From Deinococcus sp. (lineage in GTDB: Bacteria > Deinococcota > Deinococci > Deinococcales > Deinococcaceae): a stretch of 64,000 nt of DNA. The DNA lies in assembly GCA_965261005.1 (NCBI GenBank), contig OZ253375.1, positions 1,920,001 through 1,984,000 on the forward strand, read 5' to 3'. The notes under the pieces are model-generated. The model made no database searches and was not told where the DNA came from. It saw nothing but the letters and a program-made list of their open reading frames with translations. Below, in pieces: positions 2,959 to 59,857 of this stretch; the first letter of the stretch is position 1; each line of letters begins with the position of its first letter. Both the position numbers and the translations under genes were made by a program.

Positions 2959-2960
2959 AC

Positions 2961-3095
2961 CTATTTTACCTTCCTACCCGGATGCCACATTTCCCAAATT
3001 CTGAGAAGACGAAGCAGAACGTCATGCAGAACTCTGTCTGATAGTTCGACGCCTTTATCTTTCGACATTTTTTTAGAGGAAGCATTGCAAGCAAG
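2961..3095 (-). pseudogene. Orphan variant of the lipase toxin C-terminal ~45 aa
   Basis: Translates to LACNASSKKMSKDKGVELSDRVLHDVLLRLLRIWEMWHPGRKVK*, homologous to the end of 4229-6253. Confidence 0.8.
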
Positions 3096-3112
3096 TAAAA
3101 GGCGAGAGCCTT

Positions 3113-3595: not shown

Positions 3596-3726
3596 ACTTT
3601 TTTCCAGGGTGCCATTGCTGCCAAATTTGTTTCAATCTTCGGTTCAGGCGAATACGCAATTCCTGTGGTATTTCCACACCCTTATCCTTCGCCATTTTGT
3701 AGAAGGAGGCTTTGTAAGCGAAGGAG
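3588..3726 (-). pseudogene. Orphan variant of the lipase toxin C-terminal ~45 aa
   Basis: Translates to SFAYKASFYKMAKDKGVEIPQELRIRLNRRLKQIWQQWHPGKKYE*; the toxin end is SFAYKASFYKMAKDKGVEIPARTRDSLNRQLLQIWQRWHPGKKR*. Confidence 0.88.
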
Positions 3727-3749
3727 TAAAACAATGTCTATAAAGCTAT

Positions 3750-4232
3750 TTAGATGCCGGGACTGTCAACAGAGTCTTTTTCTATAAAAACACGAACAGC
3801 CCCGATATACTCGTTTGGTATCTGATTTTTCTCGTCCAAAAACTCCTTCGGAACATAGCTAAAAAGCACATTAATTTGCGGGCTTTTTCTAACCCTGAAA
3901 ACTGCGGTGGTGTCACCGTAATCCGTCCTCCAAGGCATGGAAAATTCGTACTCATCTCCGAGCATCTGATGAACTTTGGCGGCGAAACTCTTCAAGTCGT
4001 CTTTAATCGCTCCGCAAAACTGATATTTATAATCTTTAAATATTGACGTTTCTGGACATGGAACGATTTTTACGCCTACTTCTTGCTGGGTGTCCCTAGA
4101 AATTTCATCAAAAACCGTGTCTAAGGTGTACACTCTCCCGGCTCCTTTATCACCCGTGATCTTGGATTCAATCGCGTACACAGTAATACTCGCTAAAGCA
4201 ATACCAGCAGTCAATACCATACCCTTTCTCAT
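3750..4232 (-). CDS. Putative cognate immunity protein paralog 1
   Basis: ATG overlaps the lipase stop (ATGA coupling); hydrophobic N-terminus; MPWRTDYG motif. Confidence 0.7.
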   Translation of the reverse strand: MRKGMVLTAGIALASITVYAIESKITGDKGAGRVYTLDTVFDEISRDTQQEVGVKIVPCPETSIFKDYKYQFCGAIKDDLKSFAAKVHQMLGDEYEFSMPWRTDYGDTTAVFRVRKSPQINVLFSYVPKEFLDEKNQIPNEYIGAVRVFIEKDSVDSPGI

Positions 4233-6439: not shown

Positions 6440-9400
6440 ATGACCCTTCAAGCGTTGGAGGCTTACGGCCGTGAGGCAAACGGTATCTATCGCTCAGGCT
6501 CAGGCGTCGCGGAAACGTCCTACTACCCGCCGCTGTCCAACCTGCTGAACGCCGTCGGCGCCACCCTCAAGCCCAAGGTGCGCGCGATCATCAACATCGC
6601 CAACCGGGGTGCCGGCATTCCAGACGGCGGCCTGTTCACCCCCGACCAGTTCCAGCGCGGCGAGGGCGAGCCGCAACGCGGCACGCTTCCCTCGCGCGGC
6701 GCCATCGAGGTCAAGGGGACGGGCAAAGAGGTGCGCGCCATCGTTGCCTCTCAGCAGGTCAAGGATTACCTGGGGTTGTACGGCTCCGTTCTGGTCACGA
6801 ACCTGCGCGCCTTTGCCTTGGTGGTGCGGGGCAACGACGGCGGGCCGCGCGTGCTGGAGGAGTACCAGTTGGCCGACTCGGAGGCGGCCTTTTGGCAGGC
6901 CGTCCAGAACCCCCGCGCCCTTGCCGAGCGTCACGCCGAGCCGTTCGGGGAGTACCTGCGCCGGGTGATGCTCCACAAGGCCGAACTCAGCAGCCCGCAA
7001 GAGGTGGCCTGGTTCCTGGCCTCCTACGCCCGTGACGCCCGCTTCCGCCTCACCCACAGCCGCCTGGACGCGCTGGAAAAGGTGCGCGCCGCGCTGAGCG
7101 AAGCCCTGGACCTCAAATTTGAGGGGGACAAGGGCGAGGCGTTCTTCCGCTCCACGCTGGTGCAGACCCTCTTTTACGGGCTGTTTTCGGCCTGGGTGCT
7201 GCATCATCAGGACGGGCGAACGGAGCGCTTCGAGTGGAAGAGCGCCGCTTGGGAGTTGCACTTGCCGCTGATGCAACGCCTCTTTTCCGAACTCGCCAAC
7301 CCGAGCGCCCAGCGCGGCCTCACGCTCTCCGAGGTGCTGGACTGGGCGACGGACACGCTGAACCGCGTGCGAACGGACGAGTTCTTCAAGAAGTTCGAGG
7401 CCGAGCGCGCCGTTCAGTATTTTTACGAGCCGTTTCTGGAAGCCTACGACCCGGACTTGCGGCGCGAGTTCGGCGTGTGGTACACCCCGCCCGAAATCGT
7501 GGAATACATGGTGGAACGGGTGGACCGCGTACTGCGCGAAGAACTGGCCTTGCCGCTGGGATTGGCCGATCCGGGCGTGGTGGTGCTGGACCCCTGTACC
7601 GGCACCGGCTCCTACCTGGCCGAAGTGGTGCGCCGCATTCACCGCACCATGCGCGAGGCCGGCACGCTGGACGCCCTGAGCGGGGACGACTTGAAGCAAG
7701 CCGTGACCTCGCGCCTGTTTGGCTTCGAGCTGATGCCCGCCCCCTACGTGGTCGCCCACCTGCAACTGGGCCTGTTGCTGTCGCGCCTGGGCAGCCCCTT
7801 GGCCGCAAACGAGCGCGCGGGCGTGTACCTGACCAATTCGCTGACCGACTGGGAACCGCACCCCGGCGAGGGTCAGCAGCGGTTGGGTTTTGCCGAACTG
7901 CAAGACGAACACGACGCGGCCGTGAGCATCAAGCGCGACGAACGCATTCTGGTGATCCTGGGCAACCCGCCCTACAACGCCTTCGCGGGCGTGGCCGCCA
8001 AGGAAGAACAGGGGTTTGTGGACGCCTACAAAGCGGGGCTGAACACGACCTGGGGCATCAAGAAGTTCAACCTCGACGATTTGTACGTGCGCTTCTTCCG
8101 CCTGGCCGAGCGGCGCATCACCAAAACCGGGCGCGGCGTGGTGGCGTACATCAGCAACGCCTCGTATCTGAGCGACCCGTCTTTTGTGACCATGCGGCAA
8201 CGGTTCTTGGGCGAATTTGACGCCCTGTGGTTCGACAACCTGAACGGCGACAGCCGCGAAACCGGCAAGCTCACCCCGCAAGGGTTGCCCGACCCCAGCG
8301 TGTTCTCGACGGAATGGAACAAGGCCGGCATTCGCGTGGGCACGGCCGTGGGGCTGATGGTGCGCCGGGCCGGGCGCGCCGAGGTGCCAACCGTCCACTA
8401 CCGTGAGTTTTGGGGCGTGGCGAAGCGGGCCGAACTGCTGGGCAGCTTGGAAACGGGAAGCGCGACTGCATACGCCCCCGCCCAACCCGTCCCGGCCAAC
8501 CGCTACAGCTTCCGCCCGGAAGAGGTCGGGAGCGAGTACAGGGAGTGGGCCAAGCTGACCGAACTGTGCGCCGAGCCGCCGATGAATGGCCTGATGGAAA
8601 AGCGCGGTGGGGCGCTGATGGATTATGACCGGGGCGAGCTGGAACGCCGCATGAAGTTGTATTACGACCGGGGCACGTCCTGGGAAACGCTGGCCGCGTT
8701 GAACACGGGCCTGACGGAAGAGGCGGCGCGTTTTGCGCCGAAGCAAGCCCGCGCGAAGGTACAAGCGGCGGAAGCTTTCGACGCGGGCCGTCTGCTTCGT
8801 TATGTGGTGAGGCCGTTTGATACCCGCTGGGCGTACTACAGTGGCGTTCGCCCGCTCTGGAATGAACCTAGGCCGAAGCTTTGGGCGCAGATGTGGCCGG
8901 GGAATTCGTTTCTTATCAGCCGTCCGGCTGGTGCCACAAGTGAAGAAGGTGCGCCATTCTTCTTCACCTCCCGGCTTGGCGACAACGACTTTTTACGCGG
9001 TCATGCTTATTACTTCCCCCTTCAACTCAAAATCCAGCCGCCCGCCGTTTCACTCTTCAATCCCTCGGCGCCCCAAGAAGCCCGCATCGTCGCCAACCTC
9101 TCCGGGCGTGCCCGCGCCTACCTGCAAGAACTGGGCGCCCCCGATCCCGACGAGAGCGCCGAGACGGCCAAGCTGATCTGGCTTCACGCCCTCGCCATCG
9201 GCTTTTCCCCGGCCTACCTGGGCGAACATGCGGACGGCATCAAGGGGGACTGGCCGCGCGTGCCGCTGCCCGCTTCGCTGGACACGCTGCGAGCTTCCGC
9301 CGCCCTGGGCGAGCGCGTCGCGGCCCTGCTCGACGGCGAGGCGCCTTCTCTACCGCCGGAAGTGGCGGGTGTGGCCGTGATCTCGCGGGTGGGCGGCGGT

Positions 9401-9826
9401 CAGCTCGCCCCCTCGGACTTGAGCGTGACGGCCGGTTGGGGCCACGGCGGCAAGGGCGGCGTGACCATGCCCGGCAAGGGCAAGACGGAAACGCGGGGCA
9501 GCACGCTCGACCCGCGCCTGGGCGCAACGGTGCTGGACGTGTACCTGAACGGGATGGCCTATTGGAAGGACGTGCCGGCCAAAGTCTGGGGCTATACCAT
9601 CGGCGGCTATCAGGTGCTCAAGAAGTGGCTGAGCTACCGCGAAGCGGCCTTGCTGGGGCGCCCCCTGACCAGTGAAGAGGTGCGCGAGGTGCGCGGCATC
9701 GCCCAGCGGCTCGCGGCGCTGGTGCTGCTTGAAGAGGAGCTGGACGCCAATTACCGCGCCGTGCTGGCGGCGACTTGGGCCTGGGCGCCGGGCGAGGGCG
9801 TTATACAAAATGCCGCCCCGGTGTAG
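6440..9826 (+). CDS. Single-chain restriction-modification enzyme (type IIG/IIL-like: nuclease, N6-adenine MTase, ISP-type C-terminal specificity domain)
   Basis: PD...EVK nuclease motif (IPDGG...AIEVK), GVWYTP, LDPCTGTG, ILGNPPY, C-terminal VWGYTIGGYQVLKKWLSYR; no helicase motifs. Confidence 0.85.
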   Translation: MTLQALEAYGREANGIYRSGSGVAETSYYPPLSNLLNAVGATLKPKVRAIINIANRGAGIPDGGLFTPDQFQRGEGEPQRGTLPSRGAIEVKGTGKEVRAIVASQQVKDYLGLYGSVLVTNLRAFALVVRGNDGGPRVLEEYQLADSEAAFWQAVQNPRALAERHAEPFGEYLRRVMLHKAELSSPQEVAWFLASYARDARFRLTHSRLDALEKVRAALSEALDLKFEGDKGEAFFRSTLVQTLFYGLFSAWVLHHQDGRTERFEWKSAAWELHLPLMQRLFSELANPSAQRGLTLSEVLDWATDTLNRVRTDEFFKKFEAERAVQYFYEPFLEAYDPDLRREFGVWYTPPEIVEYMVERVDRVLREELALPLGLADPGVVVLDPCTGTGSYLAEVVRRIHRTMREAGTLDALSGDDLKQAVTSRLFGFELMPAPYVVAHLQLGLLLSRLGSPLAANERAGVYLTNSLTDWEPHPGEGQQRLGFAELQDEHDAAVSIKRDERILVILGNPPYNAFAGVAAKEEQGFVDAYKAGLNTTWGIKKFNLDDLYVRFFRLAERRITKTGRGVVAYISNASYLSDPSFVTMRQRFLGEFDALWFDNLNGDSRETGKLTPQGLPDPSVFSTEWNKAGIRVGTAVGLMVRRAGRAEVPTVHYREFWGVAKRAELLGSLETGSATAYAPAQPVPANRYSFRPEEVGSEYREWAKLTELCAEPPMNGLMEKRGGALMDYDRGELERRMKLYYDRGTSWETLAALNTGLTEEAARFAPKQARAKVQAAEAFDAGRLLRYVVRPFDTRWAYYSGVRPLWNEPRPKLWAQMWPGNSFLISRPAGATSEEGAPFFFTSRLGDNDFLRGHAYYFPLQLKIQPPAVSLFNPSAPQEARIVANLSGRARAYLQELGAPDPDESAETAKLIWLHALAIGFSPAYLGEHADGIKGDWPRVPLPASLDTLRASAALGERVAALLDGEAPSLPPEVAGVAVISRVGGGQLAPSDLSVTAGWGHGGKGGVTMPGKGKTETRGSTLDPRLGATVLDVYLNGMAYWKDVPAKVWGYTIGGYQVLKKWLSYREAALLGRPLTSEEVREVRGIAQRLAALVLLEEELDANYRAVLAATWAWAPGEGVIQNAAPV

Positions 9827-10090: not shown

Positions 10091-10430
10091 GCGCGAGCGC
10101 GCGGCGGCGGGTGAGGCGTGGCAAGATCAGGGCTTTGTCTTCGCCTCTGAGTTGGGCGGCCAGACGGACCCTCGCACCCTGTACGGTTGGTTTAGGGCCA
10201 TTGTGGATAAGGCCGGCGTGCCCACCATCCGCTTTCACGATCTCAGGCACACCGCCGCCTCGCTCATGGTCCGGCAAGGCATCAGCGCCAAGACGGTAAG
10301 CGACCGGCTGGGCCATAAGGACGTGGCCTTTACCCTGCGCGTCTACGCCCATCTCTACGATGACCAAAGAGAAGAGGCGGCCTTTGACCTGAGCGACCTC
10401 TACCCCCTCGCGGCGGGCGGGCCAAACTAG
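10090..10430 (+). pseudogene. C-terminal remnant of a phage/ICE tyrosine integrase
   Basis: AGEAWQDQGFVF...RFHDLRHTAAS...LGHKD...TLRVYAH; N-terminal two-thirds missing; lies next to the tRNA 3' end. Confidence 0.88.
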
Positions 10431-10623: not shown

Positions 10624-11894
<1,271 letters not shown>

Positions 11895-12111: not shown

Positions 12112-14382
12112 TCACTTCACCCGCGCCGGAATGGTCAGGCTGCCCGACTGGCCGGGCAACAGCTGGCCGCAGACGGTCACGGCGTCCACGCTGTAGAGCG
12201 GGCGTCCGGTGGTCGCGTCGGTGGTGGGCGTGACGCTGCTGGTAGCGCCGCTGGGGCACTTGAGGGTGGCGTTGCCGTTCGCGAGCAGGTTGGGGGCGAA
12301 CAGGTCGCGTACGAGGCTCTTGGTGGCGTTGGTGTCGCCGGCGTTCGTGAAGGTCAGCACGAATTCCAGCACGTCCTGCGGCTTGCCCTGAATGGTACCG
12401 CTCGACGCCGCGCCGCTCTGGGTCACGTTGCGCACCGTCTTGGCGAGGCTGAGGCTGCTCAGGGCGGCGCGCGTCGTCAGGTCCACGCTGGAGACGTTGT
12501 TGCTGCTGGCCGTGCCGTCGTTGGGGTCGGTGGCGTCCTGGGCGCGTGTCACGGTCGCCGTGTTGGTGATGACCGTGCCGTTCGCAACACCGGTGCTCAC
12601 GGTCGCCACGACGTTCACCACGACCTCGGCGCCTCCGGTCAGGGTGACGGCCGTGTTGACGGCGCCGCTGCCGCCCGTACTGGCGCAGCCGCTCGCGCAG
12701 GTCCAGGTCATGGCGCTGACGCCCGCCGGCAGGGGGTCGGTCAGGGTCGCCGTGAGGGGGCCGGGCGTGCCGGCGCTCAGGTTCTGGGCGCGCAGTTGGT
12801 AGTACACCTTGCGCCCGCTCGCCGCGCCGGTGCTGCTGGTCGTCTTGACCACCCGGATGTCGGCCTGGCGCACCACCACCGCGTTGCCGCTGATAGCCGG
12901 GCTGGAAGGGTAGTAGGCCCAGGTGTCAATGATGTTGTCGTTGCCGAAGCCGGCAGCTGAGCCGTCGCCCCAGCTGTGCGCTGGAGACGCGCTGCTGGAC
13001 ACGACGCCCTTGGGCGTGAACAGCGGGTTGGACGGCGTGTTGCCGAGCAACGGGGGGCTGGTGTTGTCGTTCCAGTACACCCGGCCGGCGTCGCTGTCCA
13101 CGTCCGTGGTGGCAGCCTGGTTTTGGCGGCTGATCCACAAACCCTTAGAATTTTCCACGTCCAGCAGCGGAAAGTGAATCTCGCCGCCGAACAGCTTGAC
13201 GCTGGCGGTGTAGCTGGCCCCCGACACGGGCACCGGGTTGCCCGCCCCGTCGAGGCCGTCCCAAGAGGCGGTGTTGCCTCCCGGCGCGGCGGTGCCGTAC
13301 AGCACGCGGTCGGTTGCGCCGGCCGTCTGGGACAGCGGAATGGTCAGGCGGTAGGCAAAGGGGGTTGTGCCGGGGTTGGTGAAGCTGAAGCTGCCGCCCG
13401 ACAGGTAGCCGTTCGTGGACCCGGCGTAGCCGGCGGTGCCGTCGCGCCCGGTGAAGCTCAGGTTGGTGGGTATGGGCGGCAAGGTAGGCGTGGTCGGACG
13501 CAGCCACTCGCCGCTTGGCGAGGTGGCGGGCAGGGCCGCGCTGGGCGGGTTGAGAAACAGCTTGGCGGTGTACTCGGTTGTGGTGTCGGCGGCGCCCGGA
13601 CTCAGAAAGTTGGTGTTGGTCACGGGCGCGCTTTGATAGCTGGGGGTGTTGGCCGCCGTGCCGTCGCGCAGGCCACGGTTGTTGGCGAAGAAGATGTAAC
13701 CGAACGGGTCAATCAACTGCTTCACCTGATATTGGTAGCCGTCGCGGGTCTGGGCCGTGACGTTCAGGTTGATGGTGATGCCGTTGCCACCCGCGTTGAG
13801 CGCGAAGTACGTGGCGTACACCCGCCCCTTTTGCTCGGCGTTGGCCGAGGACAGCACGCTGACGTCCCACGCGGCGATGGTGGCGTCCGTGGCGGTGGGC
13901 GTGGGCCACGCGGCGCTGGCGAGGGTCGCCGTCGGGTTTTTGTTGCTGGTGGCTGCGGGCGCCAGGAACTCGATACGGTAAAGGGCGGTGCTGGTCGGGG
14001 CGTAGGTGCAGGCGGTGTAGCCGCCCGTGTACGCCAAGCTCGGCCCCAAGTCTTCCTGGGCGCGGGTGGAGATCAGGCCGCAGGTGGTGCCGGTGAAGCT
14101 CGCCAGCGCCGCCGTGCCGGTGAGGGTATAGACGTTGATGGCCGCCGTTCCGAGGCCTATGCCGCTCTGTCCCAGCGCCAGCTTCTCGCCGTTTTGAACG
14201 TAGGCGTAGAGGGTCGTCTTGCGCACGACCCCGGCGGTGACCGCGTTGTTGTTGTAGCCCGTCTCCAAAAAGGCGCGGTAATCGGTTGTTCCCTTGCCCA
14301 GCAAGTCGCGGGTGCCCTCGGCGTGGGCGAGGGAGGGCAGCAGGGCCAGGCCCAGCGCGCACAGCGACAACAAGCGTTTCAT
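12112..14382 (-). CDS. Secreted DUF11-domain protein, putative filament tip/adhesin
   Basis: Signal peptide MKRLLSLCALG...AHA; large beta-rich N-terminal region; one complete and one C-terminally truncated DUF11/Ig-like domain. Confidence 0.7.
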   Translation of the reverse strand: MKRLLSLCALGLALLPSLAHAEGTRDLLGKGTTDYRAFLETGYNNNAVTAGVVRKTTLYAYVQNGEKLALGQSGIGLGTAAINVYTLTGTAALASFTGTTCGLISTRAQEDLGPSLAYTGGYTACTYAPTSTALYRIEFLAPAATSNKNPTATLASAAWPTPTATDATIAAWDVSVLSSANAEQKGRVYATYFALNAGGNGITINLNVTAQTRDGYQYQVKQLIDPFGYIFFANNRGLRDGTAANTPSYQSAPVTNTNFLSPGAADTTTEYTAKLFLNPPSAALPATSPSGEWLRPTTPTLPPIPTNLSFTGRDGTAGYAGSTNGYLSGGSFSFTNPGTTPFAYRLTIPLSQTAGATDRVLYGTAAPGGNTASWDGLDGAGNPVPVSGASYTASVKLFGGEIHFPLLDVENSKGLWISRQNQAATTDVDSDAGRVYWNDNTSPPLLGNTPSNPLFTPKGVVSSSASPAHSWGDGSAAGFGNDNIIDTWAYYPSSPAISGNAVVVRQADIRVVKTTSSTGAASGRKVYYQLRAQNLSAGTPGPLTATLTDPLPAGVSAMTWTCASGCASTGGSGAVNTAVTLTGGAEVVVNVVATVSTGVANGTVITNTATVTRAQDATDPNDGTASSNNVSSVDLTTRAALSSLSLAKTVRNVTQSGAASSGTIQGKPQDVLEFVLTFTNAGDTNATKSLVRDLFAPNLLANGNATLKCPSGATSSVTPTTDATTGRPLYSVDAVTVCGQLLPGQSGSLTIPARVK

Positions 14383-17300
14383 TTGCCACCTCCAAAGCCC
14401 GTACCGCCCAGCAGCAGATCGAGGCGCAGGTACACCCCCGGCTGGGTGGGTTCGGCCGTGAAGCCGCCGAAGCCGCCGAAGTTGTAGCCCAGCGTGAGGC
14501 CGAAGCCCTTCACGGGAACCAAGGTCGCCTCCAGACCCAGGGCGCCCGCGAAGGTGCCGCCGACGGGTTGGTACACACCGCGCAACGCCGCGCCCACGCC
14601 GAGGGAATCGTTCAGCCACAGCCGCCCGCCGGCCGAGCCGGCCAGCGTGAGGCTGCCGGGGTCGCCGCCGCTGACCTTGGCGGCCAGCCCGCCGCGCAGG
14701 TCCCAATTGCGCAGGGAGCGGACGGCGTTCAGCTCGGCGCTGAGGTCGCCCTCCCCCTGCGGGGCGAGGGTGCCCGTGCGGGCGCGGGCGTAGCCCAGCA
14801 GCGACCAGTCATCCGCGCGCACGGCCAGGCCGAAGCCGTAGCGGTGCCCGGCGCCGATGGGCGTCACCTCGCTGAGGCCGTCGAAGCTGAGGGCGCCCCA
14901 AGTGGGCGAGAAGGTGGCGCCGCTGCGCAGGTCCGCCTTCCAGCCCCCCGCCACCTGCGCGGCGTCCGCGCCCAGCGTGAGAACAGCGTTCGTCTCCTTG
15001 TAGGCGAGGTCGAGGCTGGCGCTGGCGAGGCCGGCGTCCACGTTGGCGCGCAGACCCAGCGACAGGCGGTCGTTCAGGGGCCGCCGGGCGTCCACCCCGA
15101 AGCGCGCGCGGCCGTTGTCGCCGCTCGCGCCCGGCAGCTCGTACTGCGCGCTGTAGCTGAGGCCGTCCGCCAAGGTGCCGCCCAGGGTCAGGGCGGTGCG
15201 GTTCGTGGGGACGTCCCCGCCCAGGGTCAGGGTGTTGCTCAGGCCCAGGGCGAACTGCTCGGACAGGCGGTAGGCCAAGCCGAGGGTGGCGCCCGTGTAC
15301 CCGCGCGTCAAATCGTGGCCGAGCGCCAGGTTCACTTGCAGCGGGCCGCCGTCGTAGCTGCCGGCCAGGTTGAGACCGAGTCCCGTGCGGTCGCCGCCAT
15401 AGGCCGACAGCCCGGCGGCCAGCTTGAAGGGGGCGCCCTGATAAGCGAGGCCGACCGTCGCGCTCTCCCCCGCCGTCTCGCCGGCGTGCAGCTCGGCGCT
15501 GCCGCTGGCGCTGAGGGCGTTGCCCAAAACGGTCCCCAGCGGCACGCTGACGCTCACGGCCGCCCCGCTGCCCGCGCCCGAGCCGCCGGGACCGGCGTAG
15601 CCGGCCCCCTCGCTGTGGGCGGTGGCGGTGGCGTTCACGGCCCCCTGGTAGTTGAGGGCGCCCTCGGCGCGCAGGCCCCCGGCGACAGCGACCACGGCCG
15701 TACCGCTGAGGGGACCTTGGCGGCCGGCCACGCGCACGCCCACGGCCACCTGGCCGTTTTCGGAGACGGCGCCCGCGCTGAGGGTGCCGCCCAGCACGTC
15801 CGCGCTCAGGTGGGCGCCGAAGGCGAGGCCGCCCGACCCGCCCAGAACCTGGTAGCGCGCCTCCAAGAGCACATTCAACCCCTCAGGCGTGGTGGCGACC
15901 AGGGAGGCCGCCAGGGTAATCACGCCGGTCTCGGGATCGAGGACGTAGTCGCGGTCGCGCCGCAGCTCGGTGCGGCGCACCTCGGCGCCGTTCAGCGAAA
16001 ATACCAGGTGCAGCCGCTCGGTGTTGGCGCGCGGCACTTGAGACAGCCGCAGCACGCGGGTGCCGTCCGGCACGAAGCGGTCGAGCCGCTCGCCGCCCGC
16101 CTGCGGGGCGAGGTAGCCGCCCAAGCGCACGTTGCCGCGCGTCTCGGCGTAGAGGGCGTCCCCGCTGGGCGGCGTGCCGAAGACCGGGTCCTGCGCCGCG
16201 CCGCGGGCGTACTCGGCCGCGAAGTCGGGGGCCTCGAAGCGCGCCGCCAGGGGGCCGTCCGCCGTCAGCGGGCGCCGGGGCGCGCTGGCGTCGCCGTAGG
16301 CGGGGTAGCGGGTCAGGGGCGTGCTGTCGTCGTGGACGCCGCGCGCGTCGGCCACGGCGGTCAGTTGGCCCGCGCCCAGGGGCGTCTCCAGCGTGCCGCG
16401 CCCGTCCAGAATCGCGCCCGCGCCCGATAAGGTCAGGCTGCCGGTGGCGCTCAGGGCGCCGTGCTGGCCGGCGGCGATGTTCAGCACTTCGGTTTGGGCG
16501 TGGCCGTTCACGCTCAACCTCAGCGTCACCCGGCGGGCGCCCGTCAGCGGGCGCAGCTTGAGGGTGCCCACGCCTTCTCTCAGGGCCACCTGAAAGCCGG
16601 CCTGGTTGGGGTCGGCGTCGGCCTCTTGGGCTTCGGCGCCCCCCTCGATCAGCACGCTCAGCGAGGGCAGCTCGGCGCGCAAACCGGCGGCGTCGCGCAC
16701 CTCGAAGCGCAGCGTCGGAACGGATACACCGTCGGCCGTCAAGTTTTCGCCCCTCACCACGGCGAGCGCCGCCGGGCCGGACACGAGGACGCGCACCTCG
16801 TCGCCGCCCGCGCGCAGCACGTTCTCGCCCGTGCGCAGCGGCACCGCCACGAACTCCAGCCGCGTGAGGCCGCTCACGGGGTCGCTGCCGCGCTTGCCGA
16901 TCTGCCGCGCCGGCACCGGCACGCCGTTGACGGTCAGGGTCTGGTCCGCCCCGCGCGGCAGTTGCACGACCACGTTGCTGCTGCCGCGCCCGCTGATGAC
17001 GCCGCCCGGCAAGGGAAAGCGGATGGGCGCCTCGCGCTCGGTCACGGTCGGAGTCGGGGCGGGCAGATCGGCGAAGCGCACACGGCCCTGCAAAGCCTCC
17101 TCGCGCCCACCGGCGTAGCGCGCGGCCAGGTCAACGGGGGCGGGGGCCGTGGGAACGGTGTCCCCGTCCAAGTTGAAGCGCAGCTCGCCGCTCAGCTTCT
17201 CCAGCGTCCAGTTCTCCAGCGTCCAGGCCAGGCGGCCGTCCGCCAGCACGGCGGGGTCGGGCAGGGGCGTTCCGTTCAGCTGGGCGCTGCCAGCTCGGTA

Positions 17301-19079
17301 CCCGGCGCCGGCGGGAAGGCGCAGGGCCAGCAGCCCCTCTTTGGCGTGGGCGGGCAGCTTGTAGGTCAGGCGCGCGTCGAGGCCACCGCCGACCGCCGTG
17401 AAGCTGACCTTCGCCTCGCCCTGGTTGGGCAGCAGCGGAAAGTCGGCGGGCGTGAGGCCGTAGGCGCTCACGAGCAGGGCGCCCCCCACGCCGAGGTTCC
17501 CCGGACGGGCTTCCGGCGCCCAGACGACGCTGCGCCCGTCCAAGCTGACGGGGTAGCGGCCCGGCGTCAGGTTCTCGAAGTGGTAGCGGCCCTGCGCGTC
17601 GCTCAGCACCTCGCCCACCCCGCCGAGCAGCACGCGCGCCCCGGCCACCGGGAGGTCGCGGTCCGCCGTATATGTACCGTCGCCGTCGTTGTCCACGTAC
17701 ACCCGGCCCAGCACGTCGGCCCGGCCGTTCAGGGTGACTCGGCGCACCTGCACGGCCGCGTCCGCCGGGTTGCTGGTCACGCTGGCGACCTGCCGGCCGT
17801 TCACGCCGAAGCCCTGTGCGCTGACGCGGTTGTCGAGCCGCCCGGAGGCGCCCGCCAACAAGCGCATGCGGTAGCGCAGCACGGCGCCGCCCCCCGGCGC
17901 GAGGTCGCCGATCTGGAACAGCAGCCCCTCCGGCGCGCTTTGGGGATCTGAGGTGGGCGCGCCGTTCAGGGTGGCGCTGCCCGCTTGGTAGCTCAGGTTG
18001 GAATCGGGCTGGTCGGTGACCACCACGCGCCGCACGCCGGCGCTCTGTGAGGGGTTGACCACCTTGACGGTGTAGGCCACCGTGTCGCCGGCCTCGTACT
18101 CACGGCTCTCGGCGCTCTTGCTCAGCAACAGCCCGCTGGAGAAGACCCGCACCGGGGCGGGCGCGCTGCTGACCGGCTCGGGCGTGTCGCCGCTGGTCGC
18201 GCTGGCGACGTTCTCGATCAGGGCGTCGTCGGGGGTCTCCGGCGCCACCCGCGCCGTCAGGCTGACGTGGCGCGTCTCGCCGGCCTCCAGGCGGACGAAG
18301 GTCCAGCTCAGCTTCTGCCCGTCCTGAGTCCCCGGCGCCGGCGTGGCCGACACGAAGTTCAGGCCAGCGGGCAGCGCGTCCGCCAGCGTCACGTTGGTCA
18401 CGGCGCCCGCGTTGGGGTTGGTCACGCTCAGGTCGTAGGTCACCGGGTCGCCCGCCTGCACCTGGGCGTCGCCGGTCACGCTCTTGGCGACCTTGAGCGA
18501 GCGCGCGGCGGTGTCGAGCGTGCTTTCCGCTGAAAGCGGCGCGTCCGCGCAGCCCGATCTCAGCCCGAAGCGGCTCTGCCCGCCGCCGGCGCCCTGCACC
18601 AGCAGCAGCAGCGCCGCGCTTTCGTCGGCCGCCAGGGTCAGGTCGCCGCTCAGCGTCTCGCCGGCGTCCACTTGGCCGTTCCCGTTGCGGTCCACCGCCA
18701 GCGTCAAGCGCCCCCGGAAATCTGAGGGCGCCGCCGCCGTCACCGGAAAGTCGAAGGCGGCGTTGCCCAGGTTCTTCAAGCTGAAGCCCAGCAGGGCGTC
18801 CTCGCCCAACTGGCCCGAGTGCGCCGCCTGACCGGCCGACAGCTCGGCCGCACACACGGCGGCGATGGTGACCTCGACAGGGTTGCTGCGCACCGCGCCG
18901 TCCTCGCTCTCGAAGGTGGCGACGTTGCTGACCCGCGCGCCGGCCGGGGTGCCCGCCGCGCCGGCGGGGGGGCTGAGCAGCGGCAGCAGGGCCAGCAGGC
19001 AGACCAGCAGACGCGCGGGCCGCGTGAAGCTGGCTTGCTGGGCCTGGGCTTGCTGAGCTTGCGAAAACGACCGGAACAT
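14379..19079 (-). CDS. Large DUF11/SdrD-B-repeat protein with a C-terminal outer-membrane beta-barrel-like region (anchor or usher-like)
   Basis: Signal peptide; GTPAG..V.N.A N-terminus; two DUF11 repeats; GRVYVDNDGDG SdrD-B motif; amphipathic beta strands ending GVYLRLDLL. Confidence 0.7.
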   Translation of the reverse strand: MFRSFSQAQQAQAQQASFTRPARLLVCLLALLPLLSPPAGAAGTPAGARVSNVATFESEDGAVRSNPVEVTIAAVCAAELSAGQAAHSGQLGEDALLGFSLKNLGNAAFDFPVTAAAPSDFRGRLTLAVDRNGNGQVDAGETLSGDLTLAADESAALLLLVQGAGGGQSRFGLRSGCADAPLSAESTLDTAARSLKVAKSVTGDAQVQAGDPVTYDLSVTNPNAGAVTNVTLADALPAGLNFVSATPAPGTQDGQKLSWTFVRLEAGETRHVSLTARVAPETPDDALIENVASATSGDTPEPVSSAPAPVRVFSSGLLLSKSAESREYEAGDTVAYTVKVVNPSQSAGVRRVVVTDQPDSNLSYQAGSATLNGAPTSDPQSAPEGLLFQIGDLAPGGGAVLRYRMRLLAGASGRLDNRVSAQGFGVNGRQVASVTSNPADAAVQVRRVTLNGRADVLGRVYVDNDGDGTYTADRDLPVAGARVLLGGVGEVLSDAQGRYHFENLTPGRYPVSLDGRSVVWAPEARPGNLGVGGALLVSAYGLTPADFPLLPNQGEAKVSFTAVGGGLDARLTYKLPAHAKEGLLALRLPAGAGYRAGSAQLNGTPLPDPAVLADGRLAWTLENWTLEKLSGELRFNLDGDTVPTAPAPVDLAARYAGGREEALQGRVRFADLPAPTPTVTEREAPIRFPLPGGVISGRGSSNVVVQLPRGADQTLTVNGVPVPARQIGKRGSDPVSGLTRLEFVAVPLRTGENVLRAGGDEVRVLVSGPAALAVVRGENLTADGVSVPTLRFEVRDAAGLRAELPSLSVLIEGGAEAQEADADPNQAGFQVALREGVGTLKLRPLTGARRVTLRLSVNGHAQTEVLNIAAGQHGALSATGSLTLSGAGAILDGRGTLETPLGAGQLTAVADARGVHDDSTPLTRYPAYGDASAPRRPLTADGPLAARFEAPDFAAEYARGAAQDPVFGTPPSGDALYAETRGNVRLGGYLAPQAGGERLDRFVPDGTRVLRLSQVPRANTERLHLVFSLNGAEVRRTELRRDRDYVLDPETGVITLAASLVATTPEGLNVLLEARYQVLGGSGGLAFGAHLSADVLGGTLSAGAVSENGQVAVGVRVAGRQGPLSGTAVVAVAGGLRAEGALNYQGAVNATATAHSEGAGYAGPGGSGAGSGAAVSVSVPLGTVLGNALSASGSAELHAGETAGESATVGLAYQGAPFKLAAGLSAYGGDRTGLGLNLAGSYDGGPLQVNLALGHDLTRGYTGATLGLAYRLSEQFALGLSNTLTLGGDVPTNRTALTLGGTLADGLSYSAQYELPGASGDNGRARFGVDARRPLNDRLSLGLRANVDAGLASASLDLAYKETNAVLTLGADAAQVAGGWKADLRSGATFSPTWGALSFDGLSEVTPIGAGHRYGFGLAVRADDWSLLGYARARTGTLAPQGEGDLSAELNAVRSLRNWDLRGGLAAKVSGGDPGSLTLAGSAGGRLWLNDSLGVGAALRGVYQPVGGTFAGALGLEATLVPVKGFGLTLGYNFGGFGGFTAEPTQPGVYLRLDLLLGGTGFGGGK

Positions 19080-19183
19080 AACACTCCTTCAAAGGTGAAA
19101 CAAGGCTTCTCGGTGAGCGCTCCCCAAACGGCACGTCTTGAGACCAAACATCTGCTCGGAACTGAACAATTGGAATGGAGGGT

Positions 19184-19205
19184 GGGGCGGGCACAGGCCC
19201 GCCCC
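19184..19205 (-). terminator. Intra-operon GC hairpin after the two major subunit genes
   Basis: GGGGCGGGC-ACAG-GCCCGCCCC, no U-tract. Confidence 0.5.
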
Positions 19206-19209
19206 CAGC

Positions 19210-20664
19210 TCAGTTGCTGCTGCCGGTGTCGCGCACCTTGACCGTGATGATCAGGGTCAGGGTGGCGTTCGGCGCCAAGCTGTCGGCGGCGTCCACGGCG
19301 CCGCTGGCGTTGCTGTCCAGGCCCACGTACACGAAGGGGCCGGAGGTGTCGGCGGTGCTGGTGGCGAGGCCGCTCGGGGCGCTGGCGTTCCAGCTCGCCT
19401 TGTCGAGGCTGTAAAGGACCGTGCCGGCGCTGGCGGCGCCCGAGAGCTTGGCGAACACGGTGTTCACCGGCACGTAGTCCTTGAGGGCGGGGAACTTCAG
19501 GGCGGCCGTGCCGGTGTTCTTGACGGTCACGGTGTAGCGCAGGTACTCGCCGGGTTTGGCGCCCGTGGCGCCGGCGGTGGGGGCGGCGCAGTTCAGGTCG
19601 AGGTGGCAGTTCTCCACGTCCTTGGTGACGGCGGCGGCGCCCCTCACGACCGTCACGCTGTCAGTGGCCGTTTGCGCGTTGCCGGCGCCAATCACGTACT
19701 CGTCGGTGGTGTTGCTGGTGCCCGTGAAGTACACCTTCAGGGCGTCCGTGGCCGCGTCGCCGGCGTTCTTGCCGGAGACGGCGCTGTAGGTCGCCGTGAC
19801 GGTCACGCCGCTGCCGGCCGCGATGGCGCCCCCGCTCAGGTAGCTTTGCAAGGCCGCCGTCAGGGTGGCCGCGCCCGTGCCGCTCCTGGTCCCGTCGCCG
19901 ACGACGTAGCTCACGCCCGCCAGCACGCCGGCGGGGTCGCTCAGGGTGCCCGAGCCGGCCAAGTCGCCGCTGGCAATCGGGGTGTTGCCGGTGTTGGTGA
20001 GGGTGTGCAGGCCGTCCACGGCGCCGGGCGAGGTGACCGTGAGGCTGCGGTCGGGGCTGAAGGTGAGGTTGTGAATGCTGCGGGTGCTGACCTCGTGGAC
20101 GTTGTTGCCGTCCGTCACGGGGTTGGCCGCCGTGCTGCCCGAGGAGGTGGCGGTGGGGTTGACGTAGTAAGCCTGGGCGCCGCCCGCGTTCGCCGGCACC
20201 GCGAACACCGCGATCAGGTTGGCGCTGCCGTCGGCGGGCAGGGCCACCTTGTTGCCCGTGACGGCGGTGCGGTTGCCCGCGCCGTCCACCGTGTAGTAGG
20301 TGACGCCCACGGGGGCGCCCGCGCCGTCGTCGGTCGTGAGGGTGTAGGTGTCGGGGCCGTTGCCGGCGTTGGTGAGGGTGTAATGCAGCTCGGCGTTTTG
20401 GCCGGGGGTGCCGCTCACGACCTCGCCGGGGGTGGCGCGGCTGCCGTCGGCGCCGAGCTGCACGGCGTAGACCTGCGTGACGGTCACGTTGACCTTGTTG
20501 GAGTCCTGGGCCTGGGTGGTGCCGGCGTCGTCGGTGTACTCGAAGGTGCCGGTGTTGGTGATGGTGCTGTTCGCCGGGGCGCCGGCGGCCAAGGCGGCGC
20601 CGGCGAGGGCAAGGAGCGAGGTGAGCAGGGCGGTTTTGAGCTTGTTCGTCTTGAGCTTGGTCAT
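19210..20664 (-). CDS. Secreted DUF11-like beta-sandwich protein, putative filament subunit 2
   Basis: Signal peptide; AGAPANSTITNTGTFEY N-terminus; C-terminal AKPGEYLRYTVTVKN...LKDYVPVNT domain. Confidence 0.72.
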   Translation of the reverse strand: MTKLKTNKLKTALLTSLLALAGAALAAGAPANSTITNTGTFEYTDDAGTTQAQDSNKVNVTVTQVYAVQLGADGSRATPGEVVSGTPGQNAELHYTLTNAGNGPDTYTLTTDDGAGAPVGVTYYTVDGAGNRTAVTGNKVALPADGSANLIAVFAVPANAGGAQAYYVNPTATSSGSTAANPVTDGNNVHEVSTRSIHNLTFSPDRSLTVTSPGAVDGLHTLTNTGNTPIASGDLAGSGTLSDPAGVLAGVSYVVGDGTRSGTGAATLTAALQSYLSGGAIAAGSGVTVTATYSAVSGKNAGDAATDALKVYFTGTSNTTDEYVIGAGNAQTATDSVTVVRGAAAVTKDVENCHLDLNCAAPTAGATGAKPGEYLRYTVTVKNTGTAALKFPALKDYVPVNTVFAKLSGAASAGTVLYSLDKASWNASAPSGLATSTADTSGPFVYVGLDSNASGAVDAADSLAPNATLTLIITVKVRDTGSSN

Positions 20665-20681
20665 GGCGGTCCTTGGGGCGC

Positions 20682-22238
20682 TCAGTTGACGGTCTGGCCG
20701 TCGGCGACGGGGGCGGCGGGCGCGGCGGCGGCGTCGCGCACCTTGACCTTGATGCGCACCAGAATCTGACTGCCGCCGGGCACGCTGTCGGCGGCCGTGA
20801 TGGTGTTGTCGTTGTTGGTGTCCACGCCCACGTACAAGACGGTCGTGCCGGCCGTAAAGGCGCCCAGGGTCGTCGGGTCGGTCTTCCAGGTCGTGCCGTC
20901 GGTGCTGTACAGCACGGTGCCGGTGAAGCCGGTGACGCTCGCGCCAACCGAGTACATGACCGTGTTGGCGGGCAGGGTGTCGCGCAGCTTGACGGCCAGC
21001 AGGTTGCCGGTGCCGGTGTTGTTGGCCTTGAGGTAGTACACGACGTAGTCGCCGGGCTTGGCGTTCACGTCGGTCTGCACCGCGCTGGCCGAGTTGGGGC
21101 AGCTCGCGGGAACCGTCGCGCCGGAGGTGCCGCAGAGGGCTTGCAGCTTCACGAAGCTCGCCACGCCGCGCTGCACGGTGGTCACGTCGGTGATGGTGTT
21201 GCCGCCGTTCGAGGTCGCGGCGTTGTTCTTGACCGTCGTGCTGGTGGTGACGTTCAGCAGCGCCGTCAACACGTCGGTGTTCTTGTCGCCGTCCTGCCGG
21301 CCGGTGGGCGCGGTGACGCTGACCGCCAGGGTGACGACCTCGCCGCTCGCGAGGCTGTTGGCGCCCAGCGCGTTGCTGATGGCGGTCTGCGGGTTGGCAG
21401 CTGCGGCGCCGGTGGTCCCCTTGTAGGTGGCGGTGTAGGAGACGGTAAAAGCGCCCGCAGCCAAGGCGGCGCCGGTCTTGTCGGCGTTGGTGACGGCCTG
21501 GGTGACGTTCAGCTGCGAGGTCGAGACGGGCGCGTTGCCGGTGTTGGTCAGCGTCTCGGTGTAGGTCTTGGTGCCGGTCACGGTGACAAAACCCGTGTTG
21601 CTGGCCGCCAAGCTCAGGTCATAGATCGTGTTGACGGCGATGCGGCCGTAGTTGTTGTTGTCAGTCGGGCCGGCGGGGGCGGCGGTCGTGCCCGTGGCGA
21701 CCGACTTCGCCTGCGGGTTGATGTCGTAGGTGGTGCCGGCCGCCTGGTTCACGGGAATCGGGTACACCGCAAAAAAGGTCTTGCTGGCGTCGGCGGCGAG
21801 GTTGGTGTAGCCGGTGATCAGGGTGTCGCCGGCGTCGTAGGAACCGTTGCCGTTGGTGTCGTCGTAGAACTTGACGTTGGCGGCGGTGACGTTGGCGCTC
21901 TGCGCGAACACGCTCAGCACGTCCGAGTCGCTGCCGTTGCCGGTGTTGGTCAGGCTGTAGGTCAGAACGCCGTATCTGGTGACCGCGCCGGTGCTGGGGT
22001 CCACGGTGTAGGTCTGACCGGGGGTGCCCGCCGTGCCGTCGGGCGTCACCGAGACGCCGTAGACCTGCTGCACCTGGATGTTAACGGTGTTGGAGGTGGC
22101 CGTCTGGGGGCCAGCCGCCGTGTCGTCGGTGCTGTAGTCGAGGGAGCCGGTGTTGGAGATGGTGCTGCCGGCGGGGGCGCCCACCGCGAGGGCGGCGCCG
22201 GAGAGGGCGAGCAGGCCGGTGATCCAAAAACGCTTCAT
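20682..22238 (-). CDS. Secreted DUF11-like beta-sandwich protein, putative filament subunit 1
   Basis: Paralog of 19210-20664; VGAPAGSTISNTGSLDY N-terminus; AKPGDYVVYYLKANN...LRDTLPANT. Confidence 0.72.
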   Translation of the reverse strand: MKRFWITGLLALSGAALAVGAPAGSTISNTGSLDYSTDDTAAGPQTATSNTVNIQVQQVYGVSVTPDGTAGTPGQTYTVDPSTGAVTRYGVLTYSLTNTGNGSDSDVLSVFAQSANVTAANVKFYDDTNGNGSYDAGDTLITGYTNLAADASKTFFAVYPIPVNQAAGTTYDINPQAKSVATGTTAAPAGPTDNNNYGRIAVNTIYDLSLAASNTGFVTVTGTKTYTETLTNTGNAPVSTSQLNVTQAVTNADKTGAALAAGAFTVSYTATYKGTTGAAAANPQTAISNALGANSLASGEVVTLAVSVTAPTGRQDGDKNTDVLTALLNVTTSTTVKNNAATSNGGNTITDVTTVQRGVASFVKLQALCGTSGATVPASCPNSASAVQTDVNAKPGDYVVYYLKANNTGTGNLLAVKLRDTLPANTVMYSVGASVTGFTGTVLYSTDGTTWKTDPTTLGAFTAGTTVLYVGVDTNNDNTITAADSVPGGSQILVRIKVKVRDAAAAPAAPVADGQTVN

Positions 22239-22248
22239 AAGGGTCCTT

Positions 22249-22731
22249 TCACTTCACGCGCACGCGAAAGCGCAGTTTGGGGGCGTCCCCCGGCTCAAGG
22301 GTGGTGAGGGTCCAGCGCACCGCGCGGTACTCGCTGGGGTCGGCGGGCACCTGCTTGACGACCTCCTTGCCGTTTTCGGTGACCTTGACGGTCTTGGTGG
22401 GTTTGGCGCTGAAGCTCTTGCCGTCGAGGCTGTAGCCGAGTTCCGCCCCCTCCACGGCGCCGGCGCTGCCCGCCAAAAACACCGTGTTGGCCGGGACCGG
22501 CACCGTGACGCGGGCGTTCTTGACGGCCCGGTCGGCGTGCGGCTCGGCGCGCTGCTCCAGCACGTCGCCGGGCTTCACCTGCTTGGCCTCGCTCAGCACC
22601 TCGCTGGTCTTGCCGTCCTGGGTGACGGTGGTCACGGCCTCCAAGCTGAGCTTGAGTTCGGGGGCGGCGCCGGCCAAACCGCCCAAACCGAGGGCGAGGA
22701 CAAGGGTGGCTGGGGCAAGTGGTGTTTTCAT
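22249..22731 (-). CDS. Small secreted single DUF11-like domain protein (putative chaperone or cap)
   Basis: GGAGG RBS; signal peptide; VKPGDVLE...PVPANTVF...RWTL..LEPG...LRFRVRVK. Confidence 0.72.
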   Translation of the reverse strand: MKTPLAPATLVLALGLGGLAGAAPELKLSLEAVTTVTQDGKTSEVLSEAKQVKPGDVLEQRAEPHADRAVKNARVTVPVPANTVFLAGSAGAVEGAELGYSLDGKSFSAKPTKTVKVTENGKEVVKQVPADPSEYRAVRWTLTTLEPGDAPKLRFRVRVK

Positions 22732-24902: not shown

Positions 24903-25490
24903 CTACTCGAAGCCGCGCTCCAGAAACCTCTGCACGTTGGCGGGACTGGGAGCGCCCAGGAACTCGGCCAGGGTCTCTAGCGGGACGCCGCGCTCGTGAA
25001 GATTCTTGGCGCACGACCAGCGCAAGTCGGCGACGGTGAACTCGGTGCCGGCCAGCTCGCGCGTTTCCCGGCTGACCTTGCGGACCACGTGGTTCACCTG
25101 TTCCGGCGTGATGGGCGCCTGTTCGCCGGGGCGGCGGGGCAGCAGCGGGTCGCCGGGCTGGCGCGGGGCGTTGCGGTCGTGGCGCAGGTACGCTTTCAGC
25201 GCCCGCGCGAGGTCGGGGTGCAAGTCCACCTCGTCCCACCCGTCTGCCGTGCCCTGGCGCAGCACCCGCAGGGTTTCTCCCGGCAAATCGAGGTCGCCGG
25301 CTCTCAGGGCGCTCACCTGCCGGGGGCGCAACCCCTGAAGGCCCAGCAAGCCGATCACCAACCCGTCGCGCCGTGGGCCGCAGGCGTGCATAATCTCCAG
25401 AATTTGCGGCTCTTGCAGCCGGTTCCGTTGGGATGGATTGGGCTGGACCGACTTGGGCTGGACCGAGTTGGGTTGGGCCGGGTTCGGCAT
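24903..25490 (-). CDS. Stand-alone tyrosine-recombinase catalytic-domain homolog with a degenerate active site
   Basis: AGGAGG RBS; box I GLRPRQVSALRAGDLD; box II VADLRWS...LGAPS..NVQRF, where H-x-x-R, LGH and Tyr are expected. Confidence 0.8.
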   Translation of the reverse strand: MPNPAQPNSVQPKSVQPNPSQRNRLQEPQILEIMHACGPRRDGLVIGLLGLQGLRPRQVSALRAGDLDLPGETLRVLRQGTADGWDEVDLHPDLARALKAYLRHDRNAPRQPGDPLLPRRPGEQAPITPEQVNHVVRKVSRETRELAGTEFTVADLRWSCAKNLHERGVPLETLAEFLGAPSPANVQRFLERGFE

Positions 25491-25549
25491 GGGGCCTCCT
25501 GTTGGCCTCCAGTCTGCCATCCCTGAGAACTCGCGTCCAACGGATACGT

Positions 25550-25610
25550 TTGACTTTCCGTGCATACCGCGCTACACTTTAGAAATCAGCGGCCACTTGG
25601 GCCGCTTTTT
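25550..25610 (+). repeat. 61-bp promoter/terminator unit R3
   Basis: TTGACT-17-TACACT-TTAGAAATCAGCGGCCACTTGGGCCGCTTTTT. Confidence 0.9.
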
Positions 25611-51926: not shown

Positions 51927-51976
51927 TTTTACTTCCTTCTGGGGTGAGTTTAGTCATGCTCCTCAAATTCCAATTC

Positions 51977-59857
<7,881 letters not shown>

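Follow-up and report, generated by a model that had tools for sequence, protein, structure and literature searches.

Domains of the DUF11 family, recently renamed CLIPPER, have a CnaA-like fold with an intramolecular Lys–Asn isopeptide bond formed under Asp catalysis, and in the crystal structure 9IFR the triad consists of K715, D748 and N806 (PMC12617251); the available text of that paper describes the bond only as an intramolecular one within single chains. For the Clostridium perfringens protein BsaA, a member of the TasA family, the accessible part of the report describes a mechanism of 'donor-strand exchange and lock' that involves N35, K74 and E56, and alanine mutants that lose oligomers (bioRxiv 10.1101/2024.11.04.621531). 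The threads of Sulfolobus acidocaldarius (Saci_0406), in the available description, are very stable fibres that combine donor-strand complementation with proposed intermolecular isopeptide bonds (PMC9715654). So far, 'donor-strand exchange and lock' has been supported only for the clostridial TasA-family protein and proposed for the archaeal threads. Here we analyse a 64 000-nucleotide stretch of the genome of a Deinococcus sp. (assembly GCA_965261005.1, contig OZ253375.1, positions 1 920 001 to 1 984 000; the whole stretch is called the window below, and coordinates are counted from its first nucleotide), in which a five-gene operon at 12112-22731 appears to divide a CLIPPER domain between separate proteins. 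We consider it fairly probable that this operon encodes a polar, adhesin-tipped surface fibre whose subunits are joined by trans-completion of the split domain; the fibre is probably locked by Lys–Asn isopeptide bonds and based on a large outer-membrane barrel.

Organization of the operon

The operon consists of five co-oriented open reading frames (ORFs), all on the minus strand, whose coordinates were checked and coincide with those of the initial annotation. The first gene encodes a small protein of 160 amino acids (aa) (22731-22249) and is followed by the genes of two subunits, which we term shaft B (22238-20682, 518 aa) and shaft A (20664-19210, 484 aa), of a large barrel protein in which two parts, X and Y, are fused (19079-14379, 1566 aa), and of a tip protein (14382-12112, 756 aa). 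The small-protein and shaft B genes are separated by 10 nucleotides (nt), the two shaft genes by 17 nt, and the shaft A and barrel genes by 130 nt, while an ATGA overlap joins the barrel gene to that of the tip. A signal-peptide-like start could be read from the sequence of all five proteins. A promoter and terminator scan of the operon returned no more sites than were counted in shuffled sequences.

Truncated C-terminal domains

When the five proteins were scanned against Pfam at E-values up to 0.01 (gathering score of DUF11, PF01345, 24.6 bits), the tip matched DUF11 at residues 508-633 (profile positions 1-112 of 114, 43.8 bits; the piece 508-645 corresponds to nt 12448-12861) and the barrel protein matched it in two stretches (E 1.1e-28, 100.2 bits), of which the best lies at residues 195-304 (profile 2-105 of 114). 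At this threshold no match was obtained with the whole proteins shaft A, shaft B and the small protein. Among the NCBIfam models, the DUF11-type repeat TIGR01451 was matched in all four large proteins, and the isopeptide-forming fimbrial domain TIGR04226 was matched in the barrel protein with 54 bits against a cut-off of 30.

The C-terminal domains were excised before being scored against the Pfam DUF11 profile. The shaft A piece (residues 338-484, nt 19213-19653; carrying K348, C353/C359 and D396) then covered positions 7-88 of 114 with 26.9 bits, which is above the gathering score, whereas the shaft B piece (residues 354-518, nt 20685-21179; Lys in FVK, Asp in LRDTLP, and a 17-aa tail after the domain) covered positions 10-95 (E 7e-4, 20.3 bits) and the tip piece (residues 636-756, nt 12115-12477; Lys in LAK, Asp in VRDLF) positions 14-84 (20.9 bits). 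After the last matched strand 6 residues are left in shaft A, 17 in shaft B and none in the tip, and the chains end with ...IPARVK in the tip, ...ITVKVRDTGSSN in shaft A, ...IKVKVRD followed by 16 aa in shaft B and ...RFRVRVK in the small protein. The C-terminal domains thus stop before the last two strands, as the initial annotation had claimed: their profile matches end at 84-95 of 114, compared with 105-112 in complete domains, and a complete seven- to nine-strand domain is not found within the one chain. The middle part of shaft B is made up of immunoglobulin (Ig)-like domains, and that of shaft A of two such domains. Pairwise BLAST of an acceptor against a complete DUF11 domain gave nothing informative, and searches of the PDB sequences with the shaft alignment and with the whole tip returned no match.

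A tail of 14-28 residues past the last acceptor strand is kept in the B-type shafts (…APVADGQTVN, …TITRDDSGL, …VTDSQAIN), as seen when the tail of shaft B (window 20685-20735) was compared with those of the B-type shafts of loci L033-L044. A-type shafts and tips mostly end 0-12 residues past this strand, the exception being the tip of L042 with 29.

Putative donor hairpins at the mature N-termini

The mature N-termini of the two shafts and of the barrel protein read, in this order, GAPANSTITNTGTFEY...SNKVNVTV, GAPAGSTISNTGSLDY...SNTVNIQV and GTPAGARVSNVATFE...SNPVEVTI, and share the pattern G.PAG..I.N.[AG].[FL]...SN.V.[VI]; the matching end of the complete tip domain reads ...VANGTVITNTATV...SSNNVSSVDL. 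The candidate donor hairpins, all three directly after the signal peptide, comprise residues 19-60 of shaft B (nt 22059-22184), 42-80 of X (nt 18840-18956) and 27-66 of shaft A (nt 20467-20586), the last of which include N37. A loose form of the donor motif occurred 10 times in 15 395 frames of the genome, and the only three occurrences that follow a signal peptide are all in the operon. No Pfam family was matched by the 40-aa donors alone.

A DUF11 profile of our own was built from 60 complete domains (three belong to the window, the other 57 to a set of 18 generic DUF11 proteins), and a piece was scored as placed on its last-two-strand segment when the alignment started at position 96-102 and ended at 107 or beyond, of 128 profile positions. 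The initial annotation had located the two missing strands, together with their Asn, at the N-termini of both shafts and of the barrel protein, and 32 of the 34 N-terminal pieces (18 shafts and 16 base proteins) were indeed placed on this segment. Shuffled sequences were so placed in 21 of 340 cases (6%), and other signal-peptide N-termini of the genome in 8 of 167, two of the eight being the operon's own shafts.

The Lys/Asp/Asn triad and the small protein

In an alignment of 18 shaft sequences (50% mean identity, 36 invariant columns), N37, K348 and D396 of shaft A are all invariant. The analysis was extended to 33 acceptor domains from 13 operons, namely the three of the window, 28 from 12 related loci and two from one further shaft pair. 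The acceptor Lys column holds K in 33/33 and the Asp column D in 32/33, with E in the remaining one, while on the donor side the Asn is present in all shafts (18/18) and in all X proteins (16/16), three of the latter coming from other families of the phylum. These counts agree with the earlier proposal that acceptors hold the Lys and Asp, and donors the Asn. The first complete domain of X could be aligned to 9IFR (E 0.0038), the Lys of its VAK, the Asp of its LAD and the Asn of its IEN motif falling opposite a Lys, an Asp and an Asn of the crystallized chain; counted on this alignment, the triad of X is spaced by 34 and 91 residues, compared with 33 and 91 for K715/D748/N806, and so agrees within one residue. 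Judged at the level of sequence, the first-strand Lys, the catalytic Asp and the penultimate-strand Asn are all present in the operon, but split between chains. In the same 18 sequences an invariant Cys pair, C353/C359 (window 19590-19610), was observed in the loop after the Lys strand of the shaft acceptors, and probably forms a disulfide.

The small protein, kept in 10 of the 12 related loci, was described in the initial annotation as lacking both acceptor residues, and an alignment of nine sequences bore this out: no K or D is invariant, neither acceptor residue is kept in any of the nine, and all end ...R[IV]RV[NK]. Alignment by hhalign of residues 49-108 with the shaft acceptor domain (67.5% probability, E 5e-5) placed a Val opposite D396. 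Eighteen more distant relatives, chosen for having a precomputed DUF11 hit, were all above the Pfam gathering score of DUF11, and in the three that were matched up to their C-terminus the match ended at positions 83-88 of 114. The small protein is thus a truncated DUF11 domain without the Lys or Asp, and it would most likely act as a periplasmic chaperone or non-covalent cap, a reversible holder of donor hairpins. As a lead only, clusters of look-alike proteins of ∼160 aa can be noted (score 0.94), in which 33-43% of the members have DUF11; they were most frequent in Pseudomonadota.

Base protein, predicted outer-membrane barrel and tip

The base part X (residues 1-574 of the 1566-aa ORF, nt 17358-19079) carries a signal peptide, the donor hairpin, two complete DUF11 domains and an SdrD_B/CarboxypepD_reg-like domain, and has no truncated C-terminal acceptor domain. 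The barrel part Y (residues 575-1566, nt 14379-17357) contains Ig-like domains followed by a large beta-barrel. In all 11 related Deinococcaceae loci X and Y are separate genes, and only in the window's genome do they form a single ORF. X of the relatives measures ∼560-660 aa, and Y, of 1017-1360 aa, starts −10 to +160 nt from the X stop and has a signal peptide of its own; at the junction in the window (17300-17400), comparison with L033-L043 shows that the stop, the signal peptide and the linker, ∼60 residues, are missing in frame. We take the in-frame X–Y ORF to be a natural fusion, which suggests that X and Y touch. Of the claim that the outer-membrane anchor is donor-only, the first half stands, X being donor-only here and in the relatives, whereas donor and barrel share one chain in this genome alone.

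A model of Y computed with AlphaFold2 (AF2) from residues 575-1566 and 12 sequences reached a predicted local distance difference test score (pLDDT) of 72.9 and a predicted template modelling score (pTM) of 0.50, with ∼32 long strands in the barrel (residues ∼1069-1558, nt ∼14406-15875). Its best structural matches were all outer-membrane barrels, namely PiuA (Z 16.3, root-mean-square deviation (rmsd) 7.5, 292 residues aligned), the ushers FimD (Z 15.2, rmsd 12.2, 319 aligned) and PapC (Z 14.4), and porins; Foldseek also listed LptD and the Deinococcus SlpA. The model supports a large outer-membrane barrel and does not support the name 'usher'. No Pfam family was found on the C-terminal ∼1000 residues of the barrel protein at E-values up to 0.01. 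A classical autotransporter (type Va) was considered and rejected, as no beta-domain family was matched and the ∼32 long strands are far above the 12 of that type.

Two further observations concern the contact between X and Y. A short conserved end motif (…TDP.[LV]…, …DP[EN].RWRYP), read in L038-L043, L051, L053 and L055, is present in many X proteins just ahead of the Y start, and possibly engages Y. In the closest relative, the mature N-terminus of Y (L036, ∼9150-9330; …QETSTPITNTGAPQ…) resembles the first donor strand, a stretch that may be a chance likeness or a vestigial donor.

The tip begins, after its signal peptide, with a head of ∼480 aa for which no named family was matched, continues with the complete DUF11 domain described above and has no donor hairpin. 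Among 10 genes found downstream of the barrel gene in the relatives, those of L038 and L043 look unrelated, and all eight that appear operon-linked are acceptor-only and fall into three head types. The acceptor-only nature that had been ascribed to the tip therefore applies in the window and in all eight of these relatives. A tip of the window's type is present in only two of the 12 related loci, the others having different tips.

Complex prediction and alternative readings

The acceptor domain of shaft A (residues 338-484) and its N-terminal hairpin (residues 27-66), both sliced from the 18-row alignment, were submitted to complex prediction in three runs. The median ipSAE was 0.72 (0.69, 0.77 and 0.72), compared with 0.00 for the best of three controls; at the mark applied, 116 of 157 solved complexes pass, as do 2 of 215 mismatched pairs, a calibration that is rough here because an alignment of our own was used. 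Contact agreement between the runs was at least 95%, the pLDDT of the partner was at least 76, and the predicted interface comprised residues 346-350 (the K348 strand), 389-397 (the D396 strand, antiparallel to donor residues 39-44) and donor residues 35-45 (with N37) and 52-64. As the pieces correspond to a split domain, this success may mirror their likeness to solved complete Ig/CLIPPER folds. The prediction speaks for a fit of acceptor and hairpin pieces as one domain, not for binding in the cell, and such cut pieces cannot tell cis from trans.

A number of observations weigh against the reading of the operon as a covalently locked fibre with a split domain at each junction. The excised acceptor pieces of shaft B and of the tip score below the Pfam gathering score, and the bit scores of the donors on our profile are barely above those of shuffles (median 4.5 vs 2.1). 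BLAST of the shaft A donor against the complete tip domain hit the right strands, residues 97-129, but weakly (E 0.061). In the predicted complex, the hairpin fits the acceptor as the initial annotation had envisaged, but the pair K348–N37 is absent among the 25 contact pairs listed. In the monomer of shaft A modelled with AF2 (pLDDT 81.6, pTM 0.52), the N-terminal strands are folded, with a pLDDT of ∼80-89. According to the available text of PMC12617251, some DUF11 domains lack isopeptide bonds. Lastly, Y resembles TonB-dependent receptors (Z 16.3) at least as well as it does ushers (Z 15.2).

With regard to the low scores, the signal of the putative donors is one of position and conservation, not of score. 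They nevertheless give some room to a reading in which the barrel, or some other machine, would recognize the N-terminal motif as a signal for export or sorting; the C-terminal domains would then be Ig domains that are complete but divergent, and the proteins separate adhesins or envelope components. In its favour the motif stands directly after the signal peptide in secreted partners, and a sub-threshold match to the NCBIfam model 'choice-of-anchor T' covers residues 32-113 of shaft A (28.8 bits vs a cut-off of 70). However, the motifs fall on the last two DUF11 strands far more often than shuffles do, the point at which the acceptor matches break off is that at which the donors start, the predicted complex scores above its controls, and the tip has no N-terminal motif, though it would need the same export signal. 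We regard this reading as very unlikely.

The folded N-terminus of the shaft A monomer bears on another alternative, in which the shafts self-complement in cis, possibly with an intramolecular isopeptide clasp, and the product is a short barrel-anchored adhesin, tip–X–Y, with no polymer. Each shaft does bear one donor and one acceptor, the pLDDT of the N-terminal strands implies that they are packed against something, and the complex of cut domains is as compatible with cis as with trans. On the other hand, pilins of the chaperone-usher type, folded as monomers, are commonly modelled as self-complemented too. The shaft hairpin is directly continuous with the strand that opens domain 1 (…NVTVTQVYAV…), like the last strand in tandem DUF11 arrays, and because of this continuity it would lie at the end of the rod opposite the subunit's own acceptor. 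Moreover, two conserved shaft paralogues together with an acceptor-only and a donor-only partner are what a polar polymer needs, and would otherwise be superfluous, so that the cis arrangement appears to us improbable. The tip, with an acceptor and no donor, and X, with a donor and no acceptor, can be completed only by another chain; trans pairing is required for at least these two, and we infer it for the shafts. In searches with the shaft A model, the middle domain resembled Gram-positive pilin domains (BcpA, Z 7.9), and Foldseek and VIA returned generic multi-Ig and pilin matches alone.

The DUF11 domains that lack the bond also speak for a reading in which the hairpins are complemented in trans non-covalently, with Lys, Asp and Asn serving in folding or hydrogen bonding, and in the accessible part of the BsaA report the oligomers of the N35A mutant stay stable in sodium dodecyl sulphate without the bond (bioRxiv 10.1101/2024.11.04.621531). 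Against this stand the conservation of the crystallized CLIPPER triad across 13 operons and its joint absence in the small protein (9/9), which together are hard to explain by fold stability alone. We give such a purely non-covalent fibre a low probability and retain the covalent lock as the probable state of the junctions.

Distribution and genomic context

The shaft profile matched 114 of 125 Deinococcaceae genomes at an E-value of 1e-10 or better, many of the matches being other DUF11 proteins of ∼950-1100 aa. The gene order small protein, shaft B, shaft A, X, Y is found in 11 of the 12 related loci that were fetched, and the twelfth ends at a contig edge. A profile of the small protein was run on a sample of 301 genomes from the whole phylum; 254 of these had a match, and each of the five families was represented among them (one genome flagged as unpublished, G273, is included in this count). 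In the other families the order small protein, shaft, X, Y is plain in four of five loci, with one shaft of 890-1030 aa that has both donor and acceptor, an X with a donor and a Y of 1380-1860 aa; the fifth locus has the small protein, X and Y. Three of these loci also have a tip-like gene with an acceptor end, placed after Y in two cases and upstream of the small-protein gene in the other. Many Deinococcaceae genomes (G003-G120) have 1-4 copies of the small-protein gene, and further Deinococcaceae proteins of 950-1100 aa match one half of the shaft profile, either N-terminal or C-terminal, a pattern suggesting that single genomes hold several paralogous systems.

On one side of the operon lies a gene of the phage-integrase family (24903-25565), and on the other are an IS110-family transposase (10725-11894), an integrase fragment (10152-10430) and a Type ISP restriction-modification enzyme (6440-9826). 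Of the three other genomes searched from the same genus as the window, two gave no match to the shaft profile, and for D. aetherius a homologue is annotated as lying on a plasmid. On account of the integrase and transposase flanks, this patchy presence and the plasmid-borne homologue, the operon may be on a mobile island. The closest homologues bear Deinococcus names. The G+C content is ∼70%; it is lower at 2001-4000 (0.46) and 50001-52000 (0.40) than elsewhere in the window (∼0.68), and these two stretches are possibly foreign DNA.

Known pilus machineries were looked for in the genome, which is 92% complete. It gave no match to sortase (PF04203), usher (PF00577) or PapD-like chaperone (PF00345) families, and control genomes gave matches in the same searches. 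The C-termini have no LPXTG motif and no hydrophobic tail, and no more than 17 residues follow their last strand. Sortase-assembled pili were rejected on these grounds, in agreement with the sortase-independence postulated earlier. A relation to the TasA/camelysin-type family was likewise rejected, as it was matched in none of the five proteins at Pfam E-values up to 0.01 and their domains are of the DUF11 and Ig-like kinds.

Discussion

The assembly that we favour can be outlined as follows. The acceptors (tip, shaft A and shaft B) would end in a CLIPPER domain minus its last two beta-strands, and the donors (shaft A, shaft B and X) would begin, after cleavage of the signal peptide, with a hairpin made of the two missing strands. 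This hairpin would enter the acceptor of the next-more-distal subunit and complete the Ig-like fold of that acceptor, giving a fixed polarity from the tip through the shafts to X, the donor-only end, which would be attached to the outer-membrane barrel Y and is fused to it in this genome. Insertion would put the donor Asn beside the first-strand Lys and the catalytic Asp of the acceptor; a Lys–Asn isopeptide bond then probably forms autocatalytically, as in complete CLIPPER domains, and would make the junctions covalent without a sortase. The small protein, as periplasmic chaperone or non-covalent cap, would hold donor hairpins reversibly. The length of the fibre and its export route we infer.

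More tentative, and in our view rather doubtful, is the wider proposal that the operon represents a class of pili of diderm bacteria found throughout the phylum and probably in others, built with no sortase, chaperone-usher machinery or adenosine triphosphate (ATP). In such a class CLIPPER would be split in the manner of SpyTag/SpyCatcher, the small protein would hold the hairpins, the irreversible Lys–Asn bond would drive donor exchange one way, and the ∼30-strand Y would pass the folded, crosslinked fibre and hold its base.

If the fibre exists as outlined, bacteria with two membranes would have a further way to build pili, in which the junctions are completed, self-ligating adhesin domains, and 'donor-strand exchange and lock' would reach beyond its present cases to diderm bacteria and to a surface domain that is very common. 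Such a fibre would account for an operon conserved in most Deinococcota genomes sampled, offer naturally occurring, thermostable pairs of peptide and domain for ligation, comparable with SpyTag/SpyCatcher and with a built-in logic of tip, shaft, base and non-ligating decoy, and pose a concrete export problem, that of a crosslinked fibre crossing the outer membrane via a barrel of ∼30 strands.

No description of a split DUF11/CLIPPER fibre was found in the available parts of the full-text literature searched, a 2026 review included, subscription journals lying mostly outside that search. Three candidates from the literature were set aside: the 'DUF11' of haloarchaeal tafi refers to DUF1102 proteins, modelled with donor-strand exchange without an isopeptide; the Litorilinea grappling-hook protein is a single chain of 6596 aa of DUF11 repeats; and a D. 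radiodurans proteomics table lists one DUF11 protein.

Among known systems, the closest in family is the CLIPPER domain of 9IFR (PMC12617251), which belongs, like the domains described here, to DUF11, has the same triad in the same strands and is found in stalk proteins of diderm bacteria; it is complete in one chain with an intramolecular bond, whereas here the last two strands and the Asn are on the N-terminus of a partner. In mechanism the operon resembles BsaA, where the Asn is on an N-terminal donor, Lys and an acid are on the acceptor, and an autocatalytic intermolecular isopeptide bond forms after insertion without a sortase, as is proposed here; the likeness concerns the mechanism and does not extend to the family. 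BsaA is a homopolymer of a monoderm bacterium with a single disordered donor strand and SipW processing, whereas here the donor would be a two-strand hairpin and the product a heteropolymer with tip and base, of another fold, in a diderm envelope with a giant barrel.

Chaperone-usher pili, as known from established work and review text, have the same division into a groove-only tip, shafts with donor and groove, and a donor-only last subunit at a barrel, and growth would need no ATP in either case. The present system differs in having no PapD-like or usher match, in a two-strand, CnaA-like donor hairpin, in an accessory protein that would give a groove, not a strand, and in a likely covalent lock. 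The archaeal threads share donor-strand complementation with a proposed isopeptide in the fibre of an extremophile; the bond proposed for them would link Asp24, through its N-terminal amine, to Asn57 in subunit n+2, and they lack a Pfam domain as well as partners of the tip, base or barrel kind. SpyTag/SpyCatcher and SnoopTag/SnoopCatcher are man-made splits of Gram-positive CnaB-type isopeptide domains that reconstitute and ligate spontaneously; those pairs are engineered, whereas here a natural split would be used for assembly. Donor-strand complemented, isopeptide-locked fibres are already known, and what would be new here is another fold and a diderm envelope for them.

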